Origin: Chloroflexota bacterium
Lineage (GTDB): Bacteria; Chloroflexota; UBA11872; VXOZ01
Direction of reading: 5' to 3'
Length of the DNA: 64,000 nt
Assembly (NCBI GenBank): GCA_963662335.2
Contig: CAXXVD010000001.1
Location: 448,001 to 512,000, forward strand
Position numbers and translations under genes: made by a program. Shown piece after piece: positions 1 to 47,577 of the stretch (its first letter is position 1; every line of letters begins with the position of its first letter). The notes beneath the pieces were generated by a model. It saw nothing but the letters and a program-made list of their open reading frames with translations. It was not told the origin of the DNA and did no database searches.

Positions 1-1139
1 AACTCGCGGTGTCCCAGAATCTCCGTGGCCGTCAGCAGGCCGTTGACGGTGTCGAGCGTCAGGTCGAACAGCCGCTCGCCGAGTTCGCGGATGCTGGCCG
101 TGCCGTCCAGCACTGGCACGCCGGAGAAGTCGATGTTGTCCTGCATTTTGGTAACGGTTTGCGGATTGGCGCAGACCTTGATCACCGGCGCTACCGGATT
201 GCCCAGCGGCGAACCGCGGCCGGTGGTGAAGATGCAGACTTGCGCGCCGCCGGCGATCATGCCGGTCACCGACTCCGAGTCGTAGCCCGGCGTATCCATC
301 ACCACCAGGCCTTTCTTGGCGGGATAGTCGGCGTAGCCGATCACCTCTTCCAGCACCGTGGTCCCGCCCTTGTAGATGCAGCCCAGCGATTTCTCTTCAA
401 TCGTCGTCAACCCGCCTTTGATATTGCCCGGGGCGGGATTGGCGCCGCGAATGTCCACGCCCATGTTCAGCGCGTCCTCTTCCGCCTTGCGTACCACCGC
501 GAGAAGCTGCTCGCCGATTTCCGGTTCGCGGGCGCGTTGGGCAAAGATGTGCTCCGCGCCGATGAATTCCGCCGCCTCGCTGATCATCACCGTGCCGCCG
601 GCTTCCACCAGCATGTCCGAGACCACGCCGACGATGGGATTGCTGGAAAGGCCGCTGGTCGTGTCCGACCCGCCGCACTCGGTAGCCAGCACCAACTCCG
701 AAAGGGGAAACTCTTCCTTCTGCATGGTGGAGAGCTTGGCCTGGAGTTTTTGCGCCATTTGCGCGCCTTCCTGGATGGTGCGAATGGAGCCGCCGGCCTC
801 CTGGATGACGATGAGTTCCACCGGCTTGCCGGTCTTGGCGATGCCCTCGGCGATGAGGGGCGCTTCCGCCGTTTCGCAGCCCAGCCCCACCACGATTGCC
901 GCGCCCACGTTGGGATTGCTGCCGGTGCCCACCATGGTGCGCACGAAGAGGTCCGCGTCCGGCCCCAGTTGGCCGCAGCCGTACTGGTGAATGGTCGTCA
1001 CCGCGCCGGGCACCAGTTCGGTGATGCGCTGGCCGACGGTGGACGAACAGATTACCGACGGCAGGATTGCCAGGTGGTTGCGCGCGCCCACGCGGCCGTC
1101 CGGCCGGCGGTAGCCTTGAAACGTCTCTGCACGTGCCAC
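1..1139 (-). CDS. UxaA-family altronate/galactarate dehydratase large (C-terminal) subunit, runs off window start
   Basis: Not in the ORF track; read manually. GTG at 1139 after a GAGAGGGAG SD gives MARAETFQGYRRPDGRVGARNHLAILPSVICS...HQYGCGQLG...NPNVGAAIVVGLGCE, the UxaA/GarD signature. Lacks the N-terminal SAF domain. Confidence 0.85.
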   Translation of the reverse strand, partial: MARAETFQGYRRPDGRVGARNHLAILPSVICSSTVGQRITELVPGAVTTIHQYGCGQLGPDADLFVRTMVGTGSNPNVGAAIVVGLGCETAEAPLIAEGIAKTGKPVELIVIQEAGGSIRTIQEGAQMAQKLQAKLSTMQKEEFPLSELVLATECGGSDTTSGLSSNPIVGVVSDMLVEAGGTVMISEAAEFIGAEHIFAQRAREPEIGEQLLAVVRKAEEDALNMGVDIRGANPAPGNIKGGLTTIEEKSLGCIYKGGTTVLEEVIGYADYPAKKGLVVMDTPGYDSESVTGMIAGGAQVCIFTTGRGSPLGNPVAPVIKVCANPQTVTKMQDNIDFSGVPVLDGTASIRELGERLFDLTLDTVNGLLTATEILGHRE

Positions 1140-4096: not shown

Positions 4097-4459
4097 AGCG
4101 CGGGGGCTTGCCCCCAATGGTGTCGCAGCGCGGGGGCTTGCCCCATAGGTAGCGCGGGGGCTTGTCCCCCGCCGGAGCCATTGAAACTGGCACGCACAGG
4201 GTTGACCCATCAGCTTCGCGGGTTGCAAGCCTGCGCTACCGGAGATTTTGGATGCGAGTTCTGCTGTCGCTCAGTCTAATGCGACAGTATTAGGGCTTGC
4301 CCCCGCCCAAGCAGGCACATACGCGCACGCACAAGCTGGATTCCCGCTTTCGCGGGAATGACGGGACATTTCTACACGCCCGGAGTGCTGTTCTTCGCTT
4401 TCTTGTGACCCTCTCGGTCGAATGGACCCTCACCCTCGCCCTCTCCCAGCGGGAGAGGG
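4097..4459. repeat. Cluster of REP-like palindromes (families A, G, half C, E)
   Basis: Three tandem (GT)AGCGCGGGGGCTTG(T)CCCC copies (full copy at 4149); GGTTGCAAGCCTGCGCTAC at about 4221-4239; GGATTCCCGCTTTCGCGGGAATGAC at about 4338; CCCTCACCC..CCCTCTCCC..GGGAGAGGG at 4427-4459. Confidence 0.85.
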
Positions 4460-13668: not shown

Positions 13669-13742
13669 CCGTCATTCCCGCTTGCGCGGGAATCCAGCGG
13701 CTGCGTGACCAAGATGGATTCCCGCTTGCGCGGGAATGACGG
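13669..13742. repeat. REPIN-like element (family C, dRS3-like ATTCCC-N-GGGAAT arms)
   Basis: CCGTCATTCCCGCTTGCGCGGGAATCCA...TGGATTCCCGCTTGCGCGGGAATGACGG. Confidence 0.88.
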
Positions 13743-18106: not shown

Positions 18107-18661
18107 TTAGGGCTGCGGACACGTCAGCAGGCGCTCGGCAATGCGCAGCACGATGTCCCAGTCCTGTTGCGTGGGCTTGAACTTGCCGCTGATCTGCACC
18201 GTCCAGCCCTGAAACTCGCCGGCGTGGCTCTTGATCTCCACGTCGCCGGTCTTCTTGACGAACGCCTTTACCGCCGGATCGTTGGCGAAGGCGCTGAGCA
18301 ACCGGCTGGCGTGGTCTTCGCCCTGCCACGTCACGTCCACCACCTTGCCAAAGAGCGGTATCGACTTCTTGCGCACCGTCTTGATTTTCACCAATCGTTG
18401 ATCCGAAAACGTCCGCTCGTCCGGGATGCCCAGCACGGCCCACCATTGCGGCGGGCTGTACTGCGACCCGTCATGCTTCAAGCAGTTTATCCAGCGGATC
18501 GGCCCGGACGGCAGGTCGATGATGCCCTGCGAACGATTCGACCACGTATCCTGGATCTTCTCTTCCGGCCGCCCGCGCTCGGCCATGGTGGCGGCGATGC
18601 CCAAATCGTTGAGCGCGCGGGTGATTTCATCCCGCGTCTTGTCGCGTAGGCGTTCTTTCAT
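18107..18661 (-). CDS. Hypothetical protein
   Basis: AGGAGAG SD before ATG 18661; protein-like composition, no motif recognised. Confidence 0.7.
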   Translation of the reverse strand: MKERLRDKTRDEITRALNDLGIAATMAERGRPEEKIQDTWSNRSQGIIDLPSGPIRWINCLKHDGSQYSPPQWWAVLGIPDERTFSDQRLVKIKTVRKKSIPLFGKVVDVTWQGEDHASRLLSAFANDPAVKAFVKKTGDVEIKSHAGEFQGWTVQISGKFKPTQQDWDIVLRIAERLLTCPQP

Positions 18662-18709
18662 GCGCTCTCTCCTCCCTGGCGCCGCTAACTCTCGTCCCGC
18701 AACGAGCAT

Positions 18710-19729
18710 TCACCCTCCGGTGAACGTAATGCGCGCGCCGTTGAACACGCGGCAGGTGAAGCGCACGCGCCGCTCGCCGGCGGGCGCTACCAGCGCCGCG
18801 CCGTCCGGGCCGTGGACGCGCACCGGGCCGGGATCGTCGGCAAAGGAGACGAGAAACGTCAGTTCGCCCTCCACGATCTGCGGCGGCAGATGCGGTAAGT
18901 CCAGCGCAATGGTGGCCTGTGCCTCCGATTCCTGCTCGATAGCGGTCTCGCAGTGGCGGCGCAGGTAGCGATACCGCACCACGTCGTCCGGATTCGCCGC
19001 CCACAGCGCATCGCCAAATGCCGTGCGCATCTGGTCGAAGCGCCCTTCCAGCGCATACGGCGAGATGCACTTGTGCCCCTGCGGCGTCTTGTACATGACC
19101 AGGTGGGTCACGTCCACCAGCCACTTGCCCCGCGCCCGCTCCGGCGCAAATCCCCGCCGCGAGAGCCACTCGGGCAGGTACTCGATTTCGTCATCCTCGC
19201 ACAGGCGGTTGCGCCAGATGCTGAAGGGATCGAAGTCCGGCGCGTTGATGTGCTCGGCGTCATTCGAGGCGTGGGTGAGGCCCAGGTAGCCCGGCGTGCG
19301 CTCCACCCAGGCGCGCACCGTGTCGTAAAGCTCGAAGCTGTTCCACGAGGAGAACACCGGCGCCGGCCGCCCCAGCGCGCGCTCCAGGATGTGGTACGAC
19401 TTCACGATCTCCTGGGCGAAGTCGATGCGGCTGGGGTCCCGCAGCGGCGGATGCGAATAACTGTGGTTGCTCACGCTCCAGCCTTGGGACAAGAGGAACT
19501 TCAGGTGTTCCGGCCCCATATGAAAATAGTCGTTGAGCGAACTGCGCTCCACGTGGCGCTTCTCCCCCAGTTGGCCGGCCACCACCGCCGCGTCGCCGGG
19601 AATGCCGTATTTCTGGTTGAGAGGAAAGGCGTTTGCCAGGCAATCGAGCGTGCCTTCGTCGTAGACCACCGAGTAGACGAACGCGGCGTCATCCTGCCAC
19701 GGCGCAATCTCAACGGACGTAATCCGCAT
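18710..19729 (-). CDS. Polysaccharide deacetylase (NodB-like) family protein
   Basis: YSVVYDEG, GWSVSNHSYSHP, W.VDVTH motifs. Confidence 0.75.
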   Translation of the reverse strand: MRITSVEIAPWQDDAAFVYSVVYDEGTLDCLANAFPLNQKYGIPGDAAVVAGQLGEKRHVERSSLNDYFHMGPEHLKFLLSQGWSVSNHSYSHPPLRDPSRIDFAQEIVKSYHILERALGRPAPVFSSWNSFELYDTVRAWVERTPGYLGLTHASNDAEHINAPDFDPFSIWRNRLCEDDEIEYLPEWLSRRGFAPERARGKWLVDVTHLVMYKTPQGHKCISPYALEGRFDQMRTAFGDALWAANPDDVVRYRYLRRHCETAIEQESEAQATIALDLPHLPPQIVEGELTFLVSFADDPGPVRVHGPDGAALVAPAGERRVRFTCRVFNGARITFTGG

Positions 19730-19813
19730 GGCAACTCACTCCAAACTGGCTATCTTCTACCGGCAACCGGCCGGAGGATGCCCCTTACTTCTACAGAGTC
19801 CGGCGGCAGACTC

Positions 19814-19889
19814 CGTCATTCCCGCGAACGCGGGAATCCATCTTCTCTGCGTGCGACAAGGATGGATTCCCGCGTTCGCGGGAATGACG
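19814..19889. repeat. REPIN-like element (family C)
   Basis: CGTCATTCCCGCGAACGCGGGAATCCATC...GATGGATTCCCGCGTTCGCGGGAATGACG. Confidence 0.88.
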
Positions 19890-19922
19890 ATCGGGACGCC
19901 AGCCCTCCACTCTCATTCAGAA

Positions 19923-21263
19923 TCAAGCAATCCGCGCCGAGTCGTACACGCCCGCCATGCCCGCGTCCAGCGGGTTGACCTGCACCCACACCTCCTCCGG
20001 CATGGCATCCCCTTCCAGTTCAAGGGAAATTGAGACCTGCTCAAAGCCGTGCACCGGCGCGATGCAGTGCCCGATCTGCCGCCGGATGAGGATATTCGAC
20101 TCCTCGCGCGTCGCGGCGGGATCGGCGGCGGTCTTGGGATCGCCGTTGAAGGCCACCGCCAGCAGCCGGTTCACGTCGAACGCGCCGGTGTTTTCTACGA
20201 TGATCTCCGCCAGCAGCCGTCGATCCTGGCGGCGCACCCGCGACGCCTGCGTATCGATGCGCAGTCCCGCGCAGAGTTCCTGCGGGGTGAGCGAAACCGC
20301 CCGATACGCGTCGAAGATGCCGTGTCCCAGCAGCGGGTCCCAGCCGGCGCCCTGCGCCGTATTGCGCAGTATCTGCCGTATTTCGCCATTCGAGAGATGC
20401 GGGTAGCGCGCAAAGGCCAGCGCCGCCACGCCGCCGCCAAAGGCCGACGCCATACAGCCGCCCTCGAACGGAATGTAGTCGCGGTCGCCGCCGGTGCCCC
20501 AAATCGATTCCGTTGGGTCGTCCGTATTGCGTTCGCCGCCGGGGGTGGCCGCCTCCACGTAGTCCGCCGAAGCCGCGATGTTCGCCGCCCGGCCGTGGCG
20601 GTTCGATGAGCCAACGGCAAAAACGCTGTCGATACCGGCGTTCACGGTCGCCACCCGCCGCCCGCGATTGTCGGCGGTGCCCTTGAAGACCAAGCAGCCC
20701 GACTGATAGGCGTAGTCCAAAGCCTCGAGCAGGCCGATGTTGTCGTACGGATAGCTGAAATCGGTGCCCTTGTAGAACAGCGGGACGCCGTCGGTGTGGT
20801 CCAGCGTGATGTAGCCGTGGGGCATCACCAGCACCTTGGCGCCGTGGTCCACCGCGTAGCGCACCGCGCGGGGCCAACTCTTCTGGTGGTGCGGTTCGTA
20901 GCCCACGCGCAGGACCATGATCGGGCACTGCGGCGCGGTGGCCGCGACTTCCCCTACGACGAACGCATGGTGTCCCCGCTGGTAGGTGGCATCTGAGCGC
21001 ATCCCCTCGTATTCGAGGGTAGCGTCTTCCTCGGCAAAGTCCCAGCCGTGCACGTCGCCCCGCGTAGGCCGCGGATTGACCCACAAGTGGCCCTCATGAT
21101 CGGGATGAAAACGATAGCCCAGGTCGATGACCGCCACCACCACGTCCGGGCTGCCCTGGGTGATGGCGTGGGCCTCCGGCACCCGCATCTGCTCCAGCGC
21201 CCAATCATACGGCGCGCGCACGCCCGCCGGCAGCGCGCCAACCTGCTTCTCCGCGATGGCCAT
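19923..21263 (-). CDS. S8 subtilase-fold protein with Cys in place of the catalytic Ser, plus C-terminal beta domain
   Basis: VVVAVIDLG (Asp), GHHAFVVG (His), GTADN (oxyanion Asn), FEGGCMASAFGGGVAAL (nucleophile helix), GWDPLLGHGIFDA; AGGAGG SD; no signal peptide. Confidence 0.85.
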   Translation of the reverse strand: MAIAEKQVGALPAGVRAPYDWALEQMRVPEAHAITQGSPDVVVAVIDLGYRFHPDHEGHLWVNPRPTRGDVHGWDFAEEDATLEYEGMRSDATYQRGHHAFVVGEVAATAPQCPIMVLRVGYEPHHQKSWPRAVRYAVDHGAKVLVMPHGYITLDHTDGVPLFYKGTDFSYPYDNIGLLEALDYAYQSGCLVFKGTADNRGRRVATVNAGIDSVFAVGSSNRHGRAANIAASADYVEAATPGGERNTDDPTESIWGTGGDRDYIPFEGGCMASAFGGGVAALAFARYPHLSNGEIRQILRNTAQGAGWDPLLGHGIFDAYRAVSLTPQELCAGLRIDTQASRVRRQDRRLLAEIIVENTGAFDVNRLLAVAFNGDPKTAADPAATREESNILIRRQIGHCIAPVHGFEQVSISLELEGDAMPEEVWVQVNPLDAGMAGVYDSARIA

Positions 21264-21302
21264 TTCTGTTTCCTCCTGAGAGTTTCCTTACCGCCCACTC
21301 TC

Positions 21303-21408
21303 ACCGTTCGTGCTGAGCCTGTCGAAGCATGAACGGTGAGACGCGCGTTTGGAGTTGCTGCACGCTCAACCCGCCGTTCACCCTTCGACTCCGCTCAGGG
21401 CGAACGGC
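21303..21408. repeat. Two REP-like elements (family F)
   Basis: CCGTTCGTGCTGAGCCTGTCGAAGCATGAACGG and CCGTTCACCCTTCGACTCCGCTCAGGGCGAACGG; relatives at about 22638-22665, 38818-38852 and 52429-52467. Confidence 0.8.
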
Positions 21409-21496
21409 TAGGTTTCGCTGTGCTCAGAGTAATGAAGATCAAGTAACCGGCTGCCCTTTCCATCCCCTCACGCGGCCCACGCACGACCATGGCAAC

Positions 21497-22606
21497 TTAC
21501 ACTATCGCCACCTCTTGCGGTATCGTGCCCAGCCGCTCGAACCCGTCTGCCTTCAGCACGTACATGTCCTCCTCCAACCACGAGGACTCCAGCGAGACCA
21601 CGTTATTCTCCGCGAACGTGATCTCCGGCCGCACGTCAACGGCGGCGGGGAGCAAACTGCCGATCAGCGGCTCCTCGTGCTTGTCCATGCCGACGCCGTG
21701 AATCCACCAGGCGTATGCGTCCGTGTCCGTGAATTCGCGCTGGCACGCCGCAAAGACCTCTCGCTTGGTCTTGCCGGGGCGCACGAACTCTTCCATGAAG
21801 AGTTGCCGCTCGCGGTGCGCGCGCCAGACGGCCAGGCTCGCCGGGCGCGGCTCGCCCACGCAGAAATTGAACTTCTGGTCGGAAAAGTAGCCGCCGGATA
21901 TAGCCGCAAGGTCAACGCGGTAGACCAACCCCGCTTCCACAATGCCGGGACTGCGAATTACCGCCGCGCCGGGTTGCTCCCGCAAGCTCGTGCCGCCGCC
22001 GGGCAGCATCCACGAGACCGGCGAGGTATTGATTGGCAAGGCCCCGTTGTCCAGCACTGCCTTTGCCCACACGGTCACGAGTTCCTGGAATGAGATGCCG
22101 ATGCGCACTTCCCGCAGCATGGCGCGGTACCCGGCTTCGGAAGCGGCAATTGCCTTGCGCAGCCACGCGATTTCCCGCGGCGTCTTGCAGGCCCGCGCTT
22201 GTGCGAGCAGCAGGTCGGCGGAGACGAACGCCGCCTCCGGCAGCAACTCCCGCAGCCGCGCCAGGTCGCTCGCCGAGGCGAAGTCCATGTCCAGGCCGAC
22301 GCGCGCCCGCGCCAAGCCGCGTTTGCCCATCTGCGCCGCCAACTCAGTCAGCCGCGCCGCGCGCGTATGGTCGGGCGCAAGACCCGCCACCGGCATGTCG
22401 GCTTCTTTGGGAAGACCGCCGAATGCAAACGATTGATCTGGCGGAACGAGACACGTCATCCACGGTGCGAGACCCTGCGGCTCGTTCAGCCACGGTCCCT
22501 CGCTCACGGCCCCGGCCAGGTATGCGCAATTGCGCATACCTAAGACAACCAGCGCGTCCAGCCGCTGCTCGGCCATTGATTGCGTTATGCGCGCAAAGTC
22601 AGCCAT
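21497..22606 (-). CDS. M24 (Xaa-Pro peptidase / creatinase) family protein
   Basis: Creatinase-N-like region, ARACKTPREI, metal-ligand-like RVDL, YFSD, HGVG..HE.P, LES, LEED. Confidence 0.85.
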   Translation of the reverse strand: MADFARITQSMAEQRLDALVVLGMRNCAYLAGAVSEGPWLNEPQGLAPWMTCLVPPDQSFAFGGLPKEADMPVAGLAPDHTRAARLTELAAQMGKRGLARARVGLDMDFASASDLARLRELLPEAAFVSADLLLAQARACKTPREIAWLRKAIAASEAGYRAMLREVRIGISFQELVTVWAKAVLDNGALPINTSPVSWMLPGGGTSLREQPGAAVIRSPGIVEAGLVYRVDLAAISGGYFSDQKFNFCVGEPRPASLAVWRAHRERQLFMEEFVRPGKTKREVFAACQREFTDTDAYAWWIHGVGMDKHEEPLIGSLLPAAVDVRPEITFAENNVVSLESSWLEEDMYVLKADGFERLGTIPQEVAIV

Positions 22607-22712
22607 GTTCCGCCTCAGCGCTTCCGCCTGCGCCGTTTGTGCTTCGACAAGCTCAGCACGAACGGGAAACCCATGCAAGAGCCACGAACGGACTTTCCGG
22701 CTGCACCCCCAC

Positions 22713-24527
22713 CTATGAGAGCGGCTCCAGCCAGATTGGACTCGTCCACGCCCGGTTGCCGTCTACCTGCCGTACGCGCAGGTAGCAATAGTGGGCGTCC
22801 ACCGGCGAAAACCGCAGCGGCACGTCGTCATCCAGTTGCGCGTGCTGCCGGTTGGGCGTGTAGGACAAAGCCGTATCGCCGTTCACCACCAGGTCGATCT
22901 GTTCGATGTCCGCCGTCCCAACTACGTCGGCGGTAAAGCTAAAGCGGTCGGCGCGCACCGTATCGCCCACCCACGCGCCGTTCACGCGGAAGTCCACGAT
23001 GATGCGCGCGCCGGTGGTGGCGTAGCAGCGGCGGTTGCGCAGCGCGTCGAAGAGCGCCGGGCGGTCCAGCCGTTCCGCCCACACGCCGGTCAGACCGGCC
23101 GGCCCGGACGGTCCCGGCTCTTTGTAGGGATTGGCGGGCCGGTTGTCGTGGGTATCGCTGCCGCTGACGATGCCGAGTTTCGCGCCCCGCATCAGAAACT
23201 GGTTGATCTTCTCTTCCTCGGTAACGCCGTCGGTCTGCTGCTTCTGGTAGATTTCGGCCAGGTGCTCCTGCACGTAGAAGTGCGTATGGTGGTGGCCGTG
23301 GATGACCGCGCCCCGGCGCTTCATCTCCCGGTAGAACTCCTGATAGTCGCGGCAGTAGACCGTATCGGGATGGTAGCGGGCGTGGAGTTTGGGGTCGTTC
23401 GCGCCGGGGCGGTCTTCGCAGAAAACCGGCGGCTGTCCTTCAGGATTTGGAAAGAAACCGTGGCGGTGGCTGCCGTCCGGGCCGGTGGCGAACTCCGCCG
23501 ACGGCAACGCGACGAACTCGCCCGGCAGGTTGTATTGCGCCCACGCTGCCTGCAATTCATCCCAAATCTCGCTGATGCAGATGCTGTAGGAAAAGAGTTG
23601 CCCGCCGGCAAAGTCGAGCGCGTTCACGTCTTTGCCCCAGGCAAAGTGCTCCACAATCGGGCGCTGGTTGAACAACATGCCGTGCGGGTCGCCCCAGTAG
23701 AGCGTGTACGGCTCGGTATCCGCAGCGATGCGCACCGGATTGCTCACGGCCTGGATGCCCTGGTATGCCGCCGCAATACGAGCCACCGGCCCTTGCACGG
23801 CTACCGCGCCTGCCGCGCTGAACGACTGCAGCGGCGCGGTCGTCTCAGCGCTGCCGGCGCGCAAAGTCACTTCGCCTTCCGCGCCGCGCACGGGATTGCC
23901 GAATCGATCGGTGACCACGACGCGCGTATGCGCCTCCCCGCTCACATAGGAAGGCGCGGTCACTTGCATCGCGGCCGCTTCCGCTTCACGGATGGTGAGC
24001 GCGTTGCTCTCCAGCACTGAGAGCGCCGCCGCGCGCGGCAGAAAATAGTGGTACTTGTCGCGCTCCGGGTGATAGAGCGTCAGTTCGCCCGCTGGGTCTT
24101 CCACCAGCCAGAAGCGGAAAGCGTCGATGGCGTTAGTGGGCAGCACGAAACCCTCGGGGGCGGTGCGCAGTTCCACCTCGATGTGGTCGCCCGCGTGCAG
24201 CGCGCCCGCCGTGCAGGTCACGCGCACCGCGTGCAGAAACTCCGGCGCCGGCGGATGGATGTCGAACGTGCGCACCGTGCCGCCGCCCAGCAGCGCCTCG
24301 GCTTCCCACACCGTGCCCGCCGGCCCGGCCACGCGAATGCCGCCGTCGGACTCATACGCATGTTTGCGCGCGCCAAACTGCCGGATGTCGTAGAAGACCC
24401 ACAAATTGCCGCCGGTCTGGAAGCCGCCGGCCGGCGCGGTATAGCGCAGCGCCAGCGGGACGGTCTCCGCGACCCGCAGCGGCCCCTCGGCAACGACCTG
24501 AAACCGTCCGTTGGCGTTCGCAGACAT
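22713..24527 (-). CDS. DUF3604 / CehA-McbA-like PHP metallohydrolase
   Basis: LYWGDPHG, SHRH, GSDTHD.RP, GLTGVWA, RRCYATTG, YLRVRQ.DG..AWTSPIW. Confidence 0.85.
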   Translation of the reverse strand: MSANANGRFQVVAEGPLRVAETVPLALRYTAPAGGFQTGGNLWVFYDIRQFGARKHAYESDGGIRVAGPAGTVWEAEALLGGGTVRTFDIHPPAPEFLHAVRVTCTAGALHAGDHIEVELRTAPEGFVLPTNAIDAFRFWLVEDPAGELTLYHPERDKYHYFLPRAAALSVLESNALTIREAEAAAMQVTAPSYVSGEAHTRVVVTDRFGNPVRGAEGEVTLRAGSAETTAPLQSFSAAGAVAVQGPVARIAAAYQGIQAVSNPVRIAADTEPYTLYWGDPHGMLFNQRPIVEHFAWGKDVNALDFAGGQLFSYSICISEIWDELQAAWAQYNLPGEFVALPSAEFATGPDGSHRHGFFPNPEGQPPVFCEDRPGANDPKLHARYHPDTVYCRDYQEFYREMKRRGAVIHGHHHTHFYVQEHLAEIYQKQQTDGVTEEEKINQFLMRGAKLGIVSGSDTHDNRPANPYKEPGPSGPAGLTGVWAERLDRPALFDALRNRRCYATTGARIIVDFRVNGAWVGDTVRADRFSFTADVVGTADIEQIDLVVNGDTALSYTPNRQHAQLDDDVPLRFSPVDAHYCYLRVRQVDGNRAWTSPIWLEPLS

Positions 24528-24643
24528 GGCGTGCCGCACCCTTTCGTCTTACCGCTTGCATTGCCGCTTCGTTGACACTCCAACCCTGCGGTATCGTATC
24601 ACAGCATACGGCAAGGCGTTCCGGCTCGCTGCCCGTGTTCGGA

Positions 24644-25959: not shown

Positions 25960-26871
25960 TTAGCCGCTGCCGTCAGTGTCATCGGTGTCGCTCGCAGTGT
26001 CGGTGTCGGCGGTTGAGTCGGTTGCGGTGTCCGTCACCGAAGTCCCGTCATCCGTCGCCGTGGCCGTGGCGGTCGCCGTCTGCGCGCCGGTAGCGGTGGC
26101 GGTGGCCGTGTCCGTTGCCGTAATCGTCGCCGTGGCCGTACTAACGGTAGCGGTGTCCGTCACCGAAGTCCCGTCATCCGTCGCCGTGGCCGTGGCGGTG
26201 GCTGTCTGCGCGCCGGTAGCGGTAGCGGTGGCCGTTGCCGTGGCGGTATCGGAATCCTCGTCATCGTCGTCATTGTCGTCGCCGTCCAGCGCGCTCAGGA
26301 TGCGCTGCAAGACCGCCTCCCGGGTCAGCGGCAACGATAGGAATGGCGACGGATCCGGACTTGCCGGATTGGCGGCCGATTCAAGGGTGGAGCGCTCCAG
26401 AGCCTCTACCGAGAATCCATAGCGGGATTCCCATGCCGCCCGCTCCCAAACGAGATCACCGTAATTGCTGCCGTCGATCCCAAATAGCTCGACGTCGGCA
26501 ATCGACGGTATGTGCAGCAGCTTGGGCCGGGGCCAGCCGCTTTCCCACTTGACCAGGTAGATGGGATTGCCCTCCTTGAGCAGTCCCGCGGAGAGCCAGG
26601 GGCTGCCGATTTCCAGGACTTTCAATTCCTCGAGACTGACCTCAACCCGCAGGTTCCAGTCGATGGTACGCCCGCCGAGCGCCCGCGTGTCCCCACCCCA
26701 ATGCAAGACACCCTGCGCATCGGCTAGCCAGAGGTGCGGCGTGCCCTGAAGCTGCACGACGGTGCCTTCGGCAAGCCGCGCATCCGATTGGCTGGCCAGC
26801 GCGGGCATGAACGAGGCGCCGGCAAGGATGGCGGCAACTACCACGCAAGACACAAAGCGGAGGCTCTTCAT
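25960..26871 (-). CDS. Secreted protein: signal peptide, unknown globular domain, Asp-rich patch and Thr-Ala repeat tail
   Basis: MKSLRFVSCVVVAAILAGASFMPALA signal; C-terminal (TA)n repeats with a 42-aa internal duplication. Confidence 0.85.
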   Translation of the reverse strand: MKSLRFVSCVVVAAILAGASFMPALASQSDARLAEGTVVQLQGTPHLWLADAQGVLHWGGDTRALGGRTIDWNLRVEVSLEELKVLEIGSPWLSAGLLKEGNPIYLVKWESGWPRPKLLHIPSIADVELFGIDGSNYGDLVWERAAWESRYGFSVEALERSTLESAANPASPDPSPFLSLPLTREAVLQRILSALDGDDNDDDDEDSDTATATATATATGAQTATATATATDDGTSVTDTATVSTATATITATDTATATATGAQTATATATATDDGTSVTDTATDSTADTDTASDTDDTDGSG

Positions 26872-26950
26872 CAAATCCCTTTCTCGATCACTATCGAAGC
26901 GGCATATTCCGTTCGCTCCACGTAGGGGCTGCGTGCCCAACATCCTCGTC

Positions 26951-26990
26951 ATCCTAATTGGGAAAGGGTTTGACTGTCAAATTTCCCAAT
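26951..26990 (-). promoter_or_regulatory. Promoter with overlapping operator-like inverted repeats
   Basis: Minus strand TTGACA (26980-26975), 18 bp spacer, TAGGAT (26956-26951); IR ATTGGGAAA-N16-TTTCCCAAT and palindrome TTTGACTGTCAAA. Confidence 0.6.
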
Positions 26991-32844: not shown

Positions 32845-33110
32845 CCGTCATTCCCGCGAACGCGGGAATCCATCTTCGTCTCACACGCAGCCAAGAGCGG
32901 ATGGATTCCCGCGTTCGCGGGAATGACGGATTTTGCGGGGATGACGGAATTCGCAGGAATGACGGACTGTGCGGGAATGACGGAACGTAGCGCGGGGGCT
33001 TGTCCCCCGCCTCTTGCGGCGCGCCGCCCGCCGGTGTAGGGGCACGACATGTCGTGCCCCTACACCGGCGGGAAGACGAAGATGGATTCCGGCTTTCGCC
33101 GGAATGACGG
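32845..33110. repeat. Composite REP cluster: family C element, 4x18-bp tandem, REP-A, REP-B, half C
   Basis: GCGGGAATGACGGA-NNNN x4 at 32917-32988; REP-A at 32987; GTAGGGGCACGACATGTCGTGCCCCTAC at 33036. Confidence 0.88.
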
Positions 33111-37850: not shown

Positions 37851-38142
37851 GTAGCGCGGGGGCTTGTCCCCCGCATGGCTTGACAACCGGCGTAGCGCCG
37901 GAGGCTTGTCCCCCGCCGCCTGGGTTGCGCTTGGCCGCGAAGATGGATTCCCGCGTGCGCGGGAATGACGGAAGGTAGCGCGGGGGCTTGTCCCCCGCCT
38001 CTTGGGACGCGGCGCGCATTCGGTGTAGGGGCACGACATGTCGTGCCCCTACACCGGCGCAAAGAAGAGTTGGTTTCCCGCTTGCGCGGGAATCCATCTT
38101 CGCCGCACAACTGGTGGGTTCCCGCTTGCGCGGGAATGACGG
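37851..38142. repeat. Dense REP cluster (A x3, B, C x3)
   Basis: REP-A at 37851, 37892 (variant) and 37975; REP-B at 38025; C arms at about 37942, 38074 and 38118. Confidence 0.88.
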
Positions 38143-45175: not shown

Positions 45176-47577
45176 GTGAAGCAGTAACGGTGACTACCCT
45201 GGGCTACATCCTGCTCTGGTGGCTTGCGGCGCAGGCCGTTACCCTCGTGACGCTGCCGCTCGCCTGGCTGCTCTTCCGCTCCATGCCGCTGGCCGGCTAT
45301 CCCTTCGCCAAGACGTTCGGCCTGCTGCTCTTTGGCTTCCTCGGCTGGTTCCTGATGTCGCTGCGCATCCTGCCGAACACGCTGTGGGCGCTGATCGTCG
45401 TGCTCATCCTCCTCGGCGCCCTTTCGGCGGTCACTGTGCGGCACTTTCGCTGGCGCGTGAAAGACGTACGGGAAGCCGTGGGGCATCAAATCTATGTCGT
45501 GGAAGTCCTCTTCTTGGTTCTTCTAACTGCCTATGCGGTGCTGCGTCAATATGCGCCTGAGCTTATGGGCACCGAGAAGTTCATGGACTTCATGCTGGTG
45601 AACAGCATCCTCCAATCGGCGTCCCTGCCGCCTCACGACGCCTGGGCCGGGGGCCTGACGGTCAACTACTACTATTTTGGCTACCTCATCGTGGCCTTTC
45701 TCACGCGCCTCACCGGCATCCCCTCCGCCATCACCTATAATCTGGCGCTGGCGCTCTTCTTCGCCCTCAGCGGGCTGGGCGCGTACGGCATCGGCTATAG
45801 CCTGGTCAAGCGCTTCCAGGCGGTCGGCGGAGTCGTGGAGCCGCGCCGGGGCACCCTCACCGGCCTCCTGGCCGTCTTCTTGCTCCTCTTCATCGGCAAC
45901 CTCTTCACCATCTGGAAAGCCCTGACCGATCCCGAAATCCTCCGCCAGGGCTTCTGGTTCGGCGTCGGCTGGAACGCCACCCGGGTGGTCAACCGGGTCG
46001 AGGGCGACACGGCCCTCGACTATACGATCAACGAGTTTCCGGCCTTCAGTTTCATCCTGGGCGACCTGCACCCCCACGTCATGGCGCTGCCCTTCGCCCT
46101 GCTGGCGATCTTCACCGCGCTCACGTGGTACGCAAACCCGGACTACGCGCCCCTGCCGCCGTCATTCCCGCGCACGCGGGAAGCCATCCGCACGCTGCTC
46201 ACCCTCCCGCGCGTCAGCCGCATCGTATTGAGCGCCATCATCTTCGGCGGCCTCTACTTCCTGAATTCGTGGGACTTCCCCACCTATTTCCTCCTGCTGG
46301 CCGTAGGCGTGCTGGCGTCGCTGAATGCGCGGGACAACTGGGCGCAGTGGAAAGACGCCCTGATGTGGCTCGGGGCCACCGGCGCGCTGGCGCTGGTGTT
46401 CTTCGCGCCGTTCTACCTCACGTTCGCTCCGCCCACACAGGGCATCGGACTGGTGCCCTACCGGACGGACCTCGGCCAGTTCTTCACGGTGCACGGCATC
46501 TTCCTCGTGCCGCTGGGCGTCCTCCTGGCAATCCTCGGCCTACAGGCCGCGCGGCGGCGTGTCGCGCCTGAGACCGCTAGGCGGCAGACGCAAGGGCGCG
46601 GGCGCAAGTCCCGCCAGCGGCGGCGGGCGGACGGCGGACGCACGGGCCAAGGCGACGCGGAGCCAAAACCCGCGGCCCACTGGGAGTTCCACCGGCCCTT
46701 CGTCCTAGCAATTGTCGCCTGGGTGGCTGTCACGCTCTTGCTGGCGCGGCTCTTGGACACGGCGGCGCTGGCGCTCATTGCCTTTAGCCTTGTGGCCGGC
46801 CTCGCCGTCCTGCTCCGGCGGCGGCAGTTTAGCGAGCCGCTGCCGTTCGTGTGCGGCGTCATCGGCCTCGCCGCCCTCCTGGTCCTGGTGAGCGAAGTCT
46901 TTTATGTAAAGGACTTCTACGGCCCGCCGAACATGCGCATGAACACCGTCTTCAAGCTCTACTTCCAGGTGTGGACGCTGCTCGCGCCGGTGGTCGCTTT
47001 CGTCATCTACTACGTCATAATCTGGCTGCGGCAGCGGCAGCGCCCGTTGAGTTGGGTCTTTCGCGTTGCCGTCGTCCTGCTTGGGTTGAGCGGACTCTAC
47101 TACTCCTTGCTCACCGCGCCCATCTTCGCCTCTTTCCAGCGCGAGCCGCCGACCCTTGACGGCACGAAGTACTACGCGCGCGACCACGCCGACGAAGTGG
47201 CCGCCATCGCGTGGTTGCAGGAACACGCCGCATCGGATAGCGTAGTTGTGGAGGCCTCGGGACAAGAGTACAGCCAGTACAGCCGCGTCTCCACGTTCAC
47301 CGGCTTGCAGACGGTGCTGGGCTGGCGCCAGCACGAGCACCTGTGGCGCAACGACTACCAACTGGTGTTCGAGCGCGAAAACGACCTCCACGCGTTCTAC
47401 GCGACCGCGCCGCGCGAAGGCGCGCTGGCTTTCTTGCGCAAGTACGACGCCGACTATATCTTTGTAGGGGACTGGGAACGCCAACTCTACGGCGAGGACG
47501 TGGAGCGCCTCCTGAACTGGTTCCCGGTCGTGTACCAGAGCGGCAACGTGTACGTCCTCAAAGTCGATGCCACCTAG
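45172..47577 (+). CDS. DUF2298 / Chlor_Arch_YYY (TIGR03662-type) integral membrane protein
   Basis: GTEKFMD, PP.D.W.GG..NYYYFGY, TINEFPAFSF..GDLHPH, NSWDFP, RMNTVFK.Y.Q.W; GTGA overlap with ThuA gene. Confidence 0.92.
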   Translation: MSEAVTVTTLGYILLWWLAAQAVTLVTLPLAWLLFRSMPLAGYPFAKTFGLLLFGFLGWFLMSLRILPNTLWALIVVLILLGALSAVTVRHFRWRVKDVREAVGHQIYVVEVLFLVLLTAYAVLRQYAPELMGTEKFMDFMLVNSILQSASLPPHDAWAGGLTVNYYYFGYLIVAFLTRLTGIPSAITYNLALALFFALSGLGAYGIGYSLVKRFQAVGGVVEPRRGTLTGLLAVFLLLFIGNLFTIWKALTDPEILRQGFWFGVGWNATRVVNRVEGDTALDYTINEFPAFSFILGDLHPHVMALPFALLAIFTALTWYANPDYAPLPPSFPRTREAIRTLLTLPRVSRIVLSAIIFGGLYFLNSWDFPTYFLLLAVGVLASLNARDNWAQWKDALMWLGATGALALVFFAPFYLTFAPPTQGIGLVPYRTDLGQFFTVHGIFLVPLGVLLAILGLQAARRRVAPETARRQTQGRGRKSRQRRRADGGRTGQGDAEPKPAAHWEFHRPFVLAIVAWVAVTLLLARLLDTAALALIAFSLVAGLAVLLRRRQFSEPLPFVCGVIGLAALLVLVSEVFYVKDFYGPPNMRMNTVFKLYFQVWTLLAPVVAFVIYYVIIWLRQRQRPLSWVFRVAVVLLGLSGLYYSLLTAPIFASFQREPPTLDGTKYYARDHADEVAAIAWLQEHAASDSVVVEASGQEYSQYSRVSTFTGLQTVLGWRQHEHLWRNDYQLVFERENDLHAFYATAPREGALAFLRKYDADYIFVGDWERQLYGEDVERLLNWFPVVYQSGNVYVLKVDAT
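46159..46188 (+). repeat. Family-C REP arm embedded in-frame in the DUF2298 CDS
   Basis: CCGTCATTCCCGCGCACGCGGGAAGCCATC, 29/30 identical to the reverse complement of 37942-37971. Confidence 0.85.

Follow-up and report, generated by a model that had tools for sequence, protein, structure and literature searches.

A conserved lineage of subtilisin-like proteins with cysteine at the nucleophile position, found in a Chloroflexota genome: candidate natural thiol-subtilases

Introduction

Exchange of the catalytic serine of subtilisin for cysteine, which gives thiol-subtilisin, is the textbook example of a Ser-to-Cys swap that cripples a serine protease, and it was the starting point of the engineered peptide ligases. 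Cysteine also replaces serine in the picornaviral 3C proteases, where the histidine and an acidic residue are kept; these enzymes have the chymotrypsin fold and belong to a different fold and clan. Within the S8 family, the intracellular subtilisin proteases (ISPs) of Bacillus are cytoplasmic, carry neither a signal peptide nor a classical prodomain, use a Ser nucleophile, and a short N-terminal extension controls their activity. Here we analyzed a 64,000-nucleotide stretch of DNA from a Chloroflexota bacterium (contig CAXXVD010000001.1, positions 448,001 to 512,000; hereafter the window), in which a gene on the minus strand encodes P0001, an S8 subtilase homolog that carries cysteine at the position of the catalytic serine.

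A published account of engineered subtilisins (PMC7921005) describes what such a substitution entails. With S221C, aminolysis of the acyl-enzyme becomes more likely and activity falls drastically. P225A eases the crowding that the thiol causes, and favorable synthesis-to-hydrolysis ratios are reached when position 225 holds Gly, Ala or certain small polar residues. The initial annotation of the window had seen in P0001 a natural parallel to subtiligase, which combines S221C with P225A, and we followed up this proposal by sequence searches, phylogeny, structure prediction and comparison of gene neighborhoods.

Results

P0001 is a subtilisin-like protein with cysteine at the nucleophile position

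The gene and the encoded protein have the following features, with row counts taken from the core alignment of the family that is defined in the next section.

19923..21263, minus strand, stop codon included: gene of P0001 (446 amino acids), an S8 subtilase homolog with a putative Cys nucleophile (open reading frame and translation, PF00082, AF2 model)
21272..21277, minus strand: Shine-Dalgarno-like AGGAGG, 8 nucleotides 5' of the ATG at 21263 (direct sequence reading)
20289..21221, minus strand: subtilase catalytic domain, approximately residues 15-325 (thermitase superposition, model range 15..325; Foldseek TM 0.82-0.84)
21123..21125, minus strand: Asp47 codon GAC, equivalent to subtilisin Asp32 (Asp in 117 of 117 rows; 1GNS alignment)
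20970..20972, minus strand: His98 codon CAC, equivalent to the catalytic His64, with His99 next to it (His98 in 116 and His99 in 112 of 117 rows; 1GNS alignment)
20667..20669, minus strand: Asn199 codon AAT, equivalent to the oxyanion-hole Asn155, followed by a near-invariant R-G-R-R (Asn in 117 of 117 rows; 1GNS alignment)
20454..20456, minus strand: Cys270 codon TGT, at the position of the nucleophile Ser221 (Cys in 117 of 117 rows; 1GNS alignment; synonymous TGC in strain contigs)
20442..20444, minus strand: Ala274 codon GCC, at the position of Pro225 (Gly 104, Ala 9, Ser 3 and Glu 1 in 117 rows; 1GNS alignment)
19926..20264, minus strand: C-terminal beta-sandwich domain, approximately residues 334-446, with invariant Q396, H399 and G406 (AF2 strands 334-445; conserved columns)

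Translation and alignment to 1GNS confirmed that the Asp, His and oxyanion Asn named in the initial annotation are present, in the motifs V-I-D-L-G (Asp47), G-H-H-A-F-V-V-G (His98) and G-T-A-D-N (Asn199), and the Cys and Ala codons that it had pointed out were found in the sequence as described, within the nucleophile helix F-E-G-G-C-M-A-S-A-F. The Pfam family PF00082 (Peptidase_S8) matched residues 40-315 of P0001 with an E-value of 9.2e-14 and 51.9 bits, above the cut-off of 21.8, and this match together with the subtilisin alpha/beta fold places the protein in the S8 superfamily. Where a serine peptidase would have G-T-S-M-A, P0001 reads G-G-C-M-A; judged by its sequence, it is an S8 homolog and not a serine peptidase. 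The extra C-terminal beta domain that had been proposed was recovered in the structural model and had no Pfam match. A scan of positions 18500-23000 for promoters and terminators returned nothing exceeding chance.

When the family profile was compared with PDB sequences, the best match was 1GNS, which is itself a subtilisin BPN' variant with Cys at 221. The profile alignment paired D47 with D32, H98 with H64, N199 with N155, R200 with E156, C270 with residue 221 and residue 274 with P225, and the order Asp, His, (Asn), nucleophile that S8 requires is kept. An AF2 model built from the 117-row alignment had a mean pLDDT of 94.6 and a pTM of 0.92, and its catalytic domain superposed on thermitase (1thm) by VIA-align with a Z-score of 34.9 and a root-mean-square deviation of 1.9 A over 255 residues. 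Foldseek TM-scores normalized to the subtilisin chains were 0.82-0.84; the best matches were peptiligase variants, and ordinary subtilisins scored practically equally. On this model, the fold of P0001 is confidently predicted to be subtilisin-like.

By our reading of the alignment, P0001 has an insertion of approximately 20 residues (151-175) after the 125-128 strand. We take G150, kept in 111 of the 117 rows, to stand at G127, a placement in BPN' numbering made through the stretch VINMSLGG; by our own mapping G121 and W130, which are spaced like G97 and W106, presumably correspond to them, and H149 presumably stands where Leu126 is found in the cleft. With these assignments, the backbone-binding elements of the peptide cleft are, as far as the alignment indicates, kept.

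The cysteine is conserved across the family

A word-indexed search returned 180 homologs, and the best 120 of the 180 share 48-85% identity. The core alignment comprises 117 rows, namely the query and 116 of these 120 best homologs, with P0004, P0013, P0076 and P0113 omitted as incomplete proteins, and its rows come from many phyla. Cys270, Asp47 and Asn199 were present in 117 of 117 rows and His98 in 116, and G268, G269 and M271 were likewise invariant; run as the initial annotation had proposed, the homolog search thus found GGCM conserved family-wide. The stretch that follows Asn199 is rich in Arg (R200 in 114, R202 in 117 and R203 in 116 of the 117 rows), and H149 and His99 were kept in 115 and 112 rows, respectively.

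An obvious concern is that Cys270 is an artifact of sequencing or assembly, or that an ordinary serine protease has been inactivated by a private mutation. Contigs from four public runs of one study span the Cys codon, and the only change found in that codon was a synonymous TGT to TGC at 20454. The core family was present in all seven genomes sampled from the genus, including that of the window. In an exhaustive HMMER search of 1.84 billion representatives, which yielded 383 proteins at E <= 1e-10, Cys occupied the nucleophile column in 23 of 148 newly listed 50%-identity representatives, all of them among the closest matches (E <= 3.1e-16); the more distant matches in this set all had Thr-Ser at the nucleophile, and the His column was unreliable for them. 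Since the cysteine is conserved across the family, it is not a private mutation, and the invariance of Cys in the core rows, the synonymous codon in four runs and the genus-wide presence leave an error, which the initial annotation had also argued against, with practically no probability. Invariance of Cys270 in the core family likewise led us to reject a dead enzyme with a variable site.

The codon was TGC in 40 and TGT in 11 of the loci L001-L052, which accounts for 51 of the 52; this set was retrieved partly with a Cys-containing pattern, and the codon counts are not independent evidence of Cys conservation. One contig of run X2 showed a compensating +1/-1 indel pair at 20098-20102, in the region of the C-terminal domain, which probably reflects strain variation or an error in the contig.

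Cysteine-bearing subtilases group together

Cysteine at this position extends beyond the core family. One Cys subfamily (P0139, P0140, P0141 and P0146) has signal peptides, extra lectin- or GH127-like regions and the motif G-G-C-M-A-T-P-H, P0137 is a further Cys-bearing relative, and in a Glu-His-Cys subtype (P0151, P0155, P0163 and P0177) Glu replaces Asp32. The genome that harbors the window encodes a member of the last subtype on another contig (locus L081, 1279-2688, minus strand, on contig C5 of genome G000). This second Cys-subtilase has 469 amino acids and no signal peptide, and reads A-V-I-E-K-G with Glu for Asp32, the classical motif D-H-G-T-H-V, and G-G-C-M-A-I-P-H with Pro225 kept. 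Longer members of the family (P0123, P0075, P0120, P0112 and P0039) had no additional Pfam domain, and searching for fused forms of greater length gave none at E <= 1e-40, a negative of little weight.

To relate these proteins, a FastTree phylogeny was built from 132 domains, consisting of 16 core-family proteins, all near-complete-domain rows among P0122-P0269 and the paralog from the same genome. All 30 Cys rows fell within one 32-row group with a support of 99, the two other rows being the Ser-bearing P0138 and the degenerate P0147. The same group was recovered, with an SH-aLRT of 99, in an IQ-TREE analysis of 81 rows from which residues 266-276 had been removed and in which every second Ser row (49 of 97), P0138 and P0147 were retained. 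Judging from these trees, Asp/Glu-His-Cys subtilases form a distinct and well-supported group that spans many phyla. Because both trees are unrooted and each needs a minimum of two state changes, a single Ser-to-Cys origin is compatible with the data and not proven by them.

The surroundings of the cysteine are remodeled

Position 225 is the second site changed in subtiligase. P0001 has Cys at 221 and a small residue, Ala, in place of Pro225. In the core family, residue 274 was Gly in 104, Ala in 9, Ser in 3, Glu in 1 and Pro in none of the 117 rows, so that a small residue (Gly, Ala or Ser) is present in 116 of them and Ala is a minority state. Pro225 was kept in 8 of the 30 Cys rows, all in sister Cys subfamilies, and Ala225 occurred in 12 of 98 ordinary Ser subtilases. 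Position 220, by contrast, was Gly in 29 of the 30 Cys rows versus Thr in 93 of the 98 Ser rows, and the clade-wide change that tracks the cysteine in these sequences is therefore Thr220 to Gly. Counts for Ser rows at position 199 were set aside, as the Asn155 column is shifted for many of them in the MAFFT alignment.

The small residue at 225 in the core family agrees with what engineering showed to be required next to Cys221 (PMC7921005). The parallel drawn in the initial annotation holds to this extent for the core family; the exact Ala is uncommon there, and because 8 of the 30 Cys rows keep Pro, the S221C and P225A pairing is not general to natural Cys subtilases.

These data bear on the possibility that the physiological reaction is, as in subtiligase, acyl transfer to an amine, by a peptide ligase, transpeptidase or N-acyltransferase whose acyl-enzyme is resolved by the amine, or alternatively thioester cleavage. 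The core family combines Cys at 221 with a small residue at 225 (116 of 117 rows), and it is this pairing that gives engineered enzymes their high synthesis-to-hydrolysis ratios (PMC7921005). Peptiligase variants also lead the Foldseek list, by a trivial margin over ordinary subtilisins. Retention of Pro225 by the sister Cys subfamilies argues against this reading, and other protease folds hydrolyze their substrates with Cys, the viral 3C proteases of the chymotrypsin fold being an example. Taking these points together with the gene neighborhood described below, we consider such a role unlikely.

A different possibility is that no covalent catalysis takes place, and that the Cys and the conserved His residues bind a metal or have a structural or regulatory role, which would make P0001 a pseudo-protease or a metalloenzyme. 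The family has an unusual abundance of near-invariant His residues (H32, H53, H59, H72, H98, H99, H149 and H399), one of them, H149, presumably replaces Leu126 in the cleft, and the H-G-T-H motif is altered. However, Asn199, Asp47 and the G-G-C-M helix cap are invariant, which is the pattern expected of covalent catalysis, and the sister Cys subfamilies pair their Cys with a classical D-H-G-x-H-V-A-G and do not conserve H399. We therefore regard a metal-binding or purely structural cysteine as very doubtful.

Most core members have no export signal

Approximately 17 residues precede the catalytic domain of P0001, and its N-terminus has no hydrophobic stretch. Model residues 10-15 aligned to residues 1-9 of the mature subtilisins and thermitase, and Pfam gave no match to an I9 prodomain in P0001; because the model meets the very start of the mature enzymes, we conclude that there is no prodomain. 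The absence of a signal peptide and a prodomain, noted in the initial annotation, is thus upheld by the N-terminal scan, by Pfam and by the structural alignment, and a secreted pro-enzyme was rejected on these grounds.

The N-terminal length across the 117 core rows had a median of 16 and a maximum of 52 residues, and 109 rows had no hydrophobic N-terminal window and no long N-terminal extension. As in P0001, a prodomain is absent throughout the core family. The remaining 8 have a hydrophobic or twin-arginine translocation (Tat)-like N-terminus, and a minority of core members is therefore probably exported. The description of the protein as cytoplasmic, made from the window alone, accordingly fits most of the core family and does not extend to those eight.

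Distribution and gene neighborhood

Loci related to the P0001 gene were found in metagenome-assembled genomes (MAGs) labeled Chloroflexota (85-90% identity, the kin of the window), Gemmatimonadota, Verrucomicrobiota, Kiritimatiellota, Planctomycetota, Armatimonadota, Lentisphaerales, Spirochaetales and Clostridia, and in one Bathyarchaeota bin. Of 201 sampled Chloroflexota genomes, 7 carried the core family, and every one of these belongs to the genus of the window; it was found in none of the 194 others. Because the family is so patchy among Chloroflexota genomes, its distribution suggests horizontal transfer.

The following features lie beside the P0001 gene in the window.

18710..19729, minus strand: CE4-type polysaccharide deacetylase homolog (339 amino acids), downstream and co-directional, the most conserved partner (PF01522, E 1.4e-9)
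21497..22678, minus strand: M24 / creatinase-prolidase-like gene (393 amino acids), upstream and co-directional (PF00557 and PF01321)
22713..24539, minus strand: DUF3604 / CehA-McbA-like metallohydrolase gene (608 amino acids) (PF12228; NF038032 at 65.6 bits, under the cut-off of 80)
19818..19885, no strand assigned: pair of palindromic repeats resembling repetitive extragenic palindromic (REP) elements, located between the subtilase and CE4 genes (14 window matches versus 0.01 expected)

Neighbor families were named by Pfam, and neighbors were recounted by tblastn because greedy open reading frame calling in GC-rich loci had picked some antisense frames (cluster 12). In 14 close Chloroflexota loci, CE4, M24 and DUF3604 genes were each found in 14 of 14, with M24 adjacent. 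Across 32 diverse loci, we found CE4 in 17, GFO/IDH/MocA in 19, DegT aminotransferases in 12, URO-D/MtaA-like proteins in 11, AraC regulators in 9 and DUF3604 in 7, and M14-like proteins, DAO-type oxidases and BNR proteins in 3-4 each. The CE4 and subtilase genes were co-directional in 17 of the 17 diverse loci that have CE4 and lay less than 50 bp apart in 8, among them L023, L027, L029, L034, L039, L045 (8 bp) and L046, where the gaps range from 4 to 47 bp. Matches of the partners to PDB sequences were weak (E 5e-4 for the CE4 partner and 2e-3 for the URO-D-like partner), and a literature search on DUF3604 gave nothing relevant.

Since a neighborhood of CE4, oxidoreductase, aminotransferase and AraC genes looks catabolic, it favors a hydrolase. 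For the alternative of acyl transfer, the neighboring DegT aminotransferases would make amino-sugar amines, which are possible acceptors; set against this, the conserved neighbors include no gene for an activated acyl donor, a carrier protein, a ribosomally synthesized and post-translationally modified peptide (RiPP) precursor, an ATP-grasp enzyme or a non-ribosomal peptide synthetase (NRPS), and the AraC regulators, deacetylases and M24- and M14-like hydrolases suggest breakdown, not synthesis. The most specific form of the idea, in which the core family would be a natural transpeptidase, ligase or N-acyltransferase that transfers peptide or acyl groups to an amino-sugar amine supplied by the neighboring aminotransferase and deacetylase, and hence a natural counterpart of subtiligase, appears to us distinctly unlikely.

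Several other arrangements were observed at these loci. L015-L019, from the genomes of L004, L006, L007, L009 and L012, carry a 58-59% identical Cys-subtilase paralog beside another M24 gene and genes for a solute-binding protein and an ATP-binding cassette (ABC) transporter. In L001-L012 and in the window (22713-24539, minus strand), tandem groups of 2-4 DUF3604/CehA-McbA-like genes lie upstream of the M24-subtilase-CE4 genes. In the Planctomycetaceae loci L037, L040 and L041, a BNR/sialidase-like gene and an unannotated gene of about 500 amino acids come immediately before the Cys-subtilase gene or overlap with it, an arrangement that hints at a glycan-linked role.

The REP-like palindrome ATTCCCGCGAACGCGGGAAT and its variants have 14 matches in the window with at most two mismatches, versus 0.01 expected by chance. 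The sites include 19818-19885, 32850-32924, 13674-13737, 4340-4359, 37947-37966 and 46164-46183, and the palindromes often form inverted pairs in intergenic gaps, including that between the subtilase and CE4 genes. An open reading frame of 330 amino acids at 25960-26952 (minus strand) has no Pfam match, a hydrophobic N-terminal stretch and a long low-complexity tail rich in Thr, Ala and Asp, which is encoded by a 6-nucleotide tandem array at 26052-26139.

Discussion

On balance, we think it fairly probable that P0001 is an active thiol-subtilase of a mostly cytoplasmic family, which hydrolyzes an amide or peptide bond in a catabolic pathway of the amino-sugar or glycopeptide type. The four catalytic positions are strictly conserved, the peptide-binding strands are kept and the surroundings of the thiol have been remodeled in concert, and for these reasons a working covalent Cys catalyst is the reading that we prefer. 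In the mechanism that we propose, Cys270 would be activated by His98 and Asp47, with help from an oxyanion hole at Asn199, and would attack an amide or ester carbonyl to form a thioester acyl-enzyme, which would be resolved mainly by water; in the core family, Gly220 and the small residue at 225 would surround the thiol. The substrate would be peptide-like and probably anionic, as the Arg-rich segment N199-R-G-R-R starts at a position of the S1 rim and hints at an anionic group there, and the pathway may be an AraC-regulated breakdown of an N-acylated amino-sugar or glycopeptide-type compound.

Several observations weigh against a hydrolytic thiol-subtilase. The His region of P0001 is atypical, with G-H-H-A-F in place of H-G-T-H, and in the model a helix begins at residue 93, five residues ahead of His98. 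The neighborhood evidence is guilt by association: the NCBIfam matches of the neighbors all fall below their cut-offs, 15 of the 32 diverse loci, several of them short contigs, gave no CE4 match, and the five Chloroflexota paralog loci have M24 in 5 of 5 and CE4 in 0 of 5. The proposed anionic substrate derives only from the alignment of R200 with E156 and from background knowledge of the S1 site. Finally, the engineered S221C subtilisins lose most of their activity and favor aminolysis (PMC7921005), so that a Cys in the subtilisin scaffold does not by itself predict a good amidase.

Full-text literature searches, with subscription-only papers and MEROPS beyond their scope, found no natural Cys-nucleophile subtilase, which agrees with the earlier statement that no characterized natural example was known, and databases label members of the family only as 'S8 family serine peptidase' or 'hypothetical protein'. 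Within the literature searched, thiol subtilases are apparently an undescribed natural lineage. If our reading is correct, the subtilisin clan would here have its first Cys-nucleophile branch from nature, made up of the cytoplasmic core family, the secreted multidomain forms and the Glu-His-Cys subtype, and the lineage would add such a branch to a clan that is classified as serine-only. It would show how evolution has tuned a thiol site, with Gly at 220, either Pro or a small residue at 225, and an acid that is Asp or Glu, and would supply ready scaffolds for ligase or thioesterase trials. Its conserved operon partners point to an uncharacterized cytoplasmic pathway in Chloroflexota, several phyla of the PVC group (Planctomycetota, Verrucomicrobiota and relatives), Armatimonadota and others.

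Among described proteins, the mycosins (TIGR03921) gave the best NCBIfam match, over residues 129-329, and share the S8 fold with P0001; P0001 has no membrane anchor or type VII secretion context, and with 100.5 bits against a cut-off of 278.75 membership was rejected. With subtilisin BPN' and thermitase (S8A, clan SB), P0001 shares the fold, the catalytic order and Met222. It differs from them in having Cys for Ser, Gly for Thr220 and His-His-Ala-Phe for His-Gly-Thr-His, in the absence of a signal peptide and an I9 prodomain, and in the presence of the 151-175 insertion and the C-terminal beta domain. Closest at the nucleophile site are subtiligase, peptiligase and omniligase, the S221C and P225A derivatives of BPN', with which the core family has Cys221 and a small residue at 225 in common; unlike them, the core family is natural, approximately 21-29% identical to these enzymes, has mostly Gly at 225 and carries the additional T220G change.

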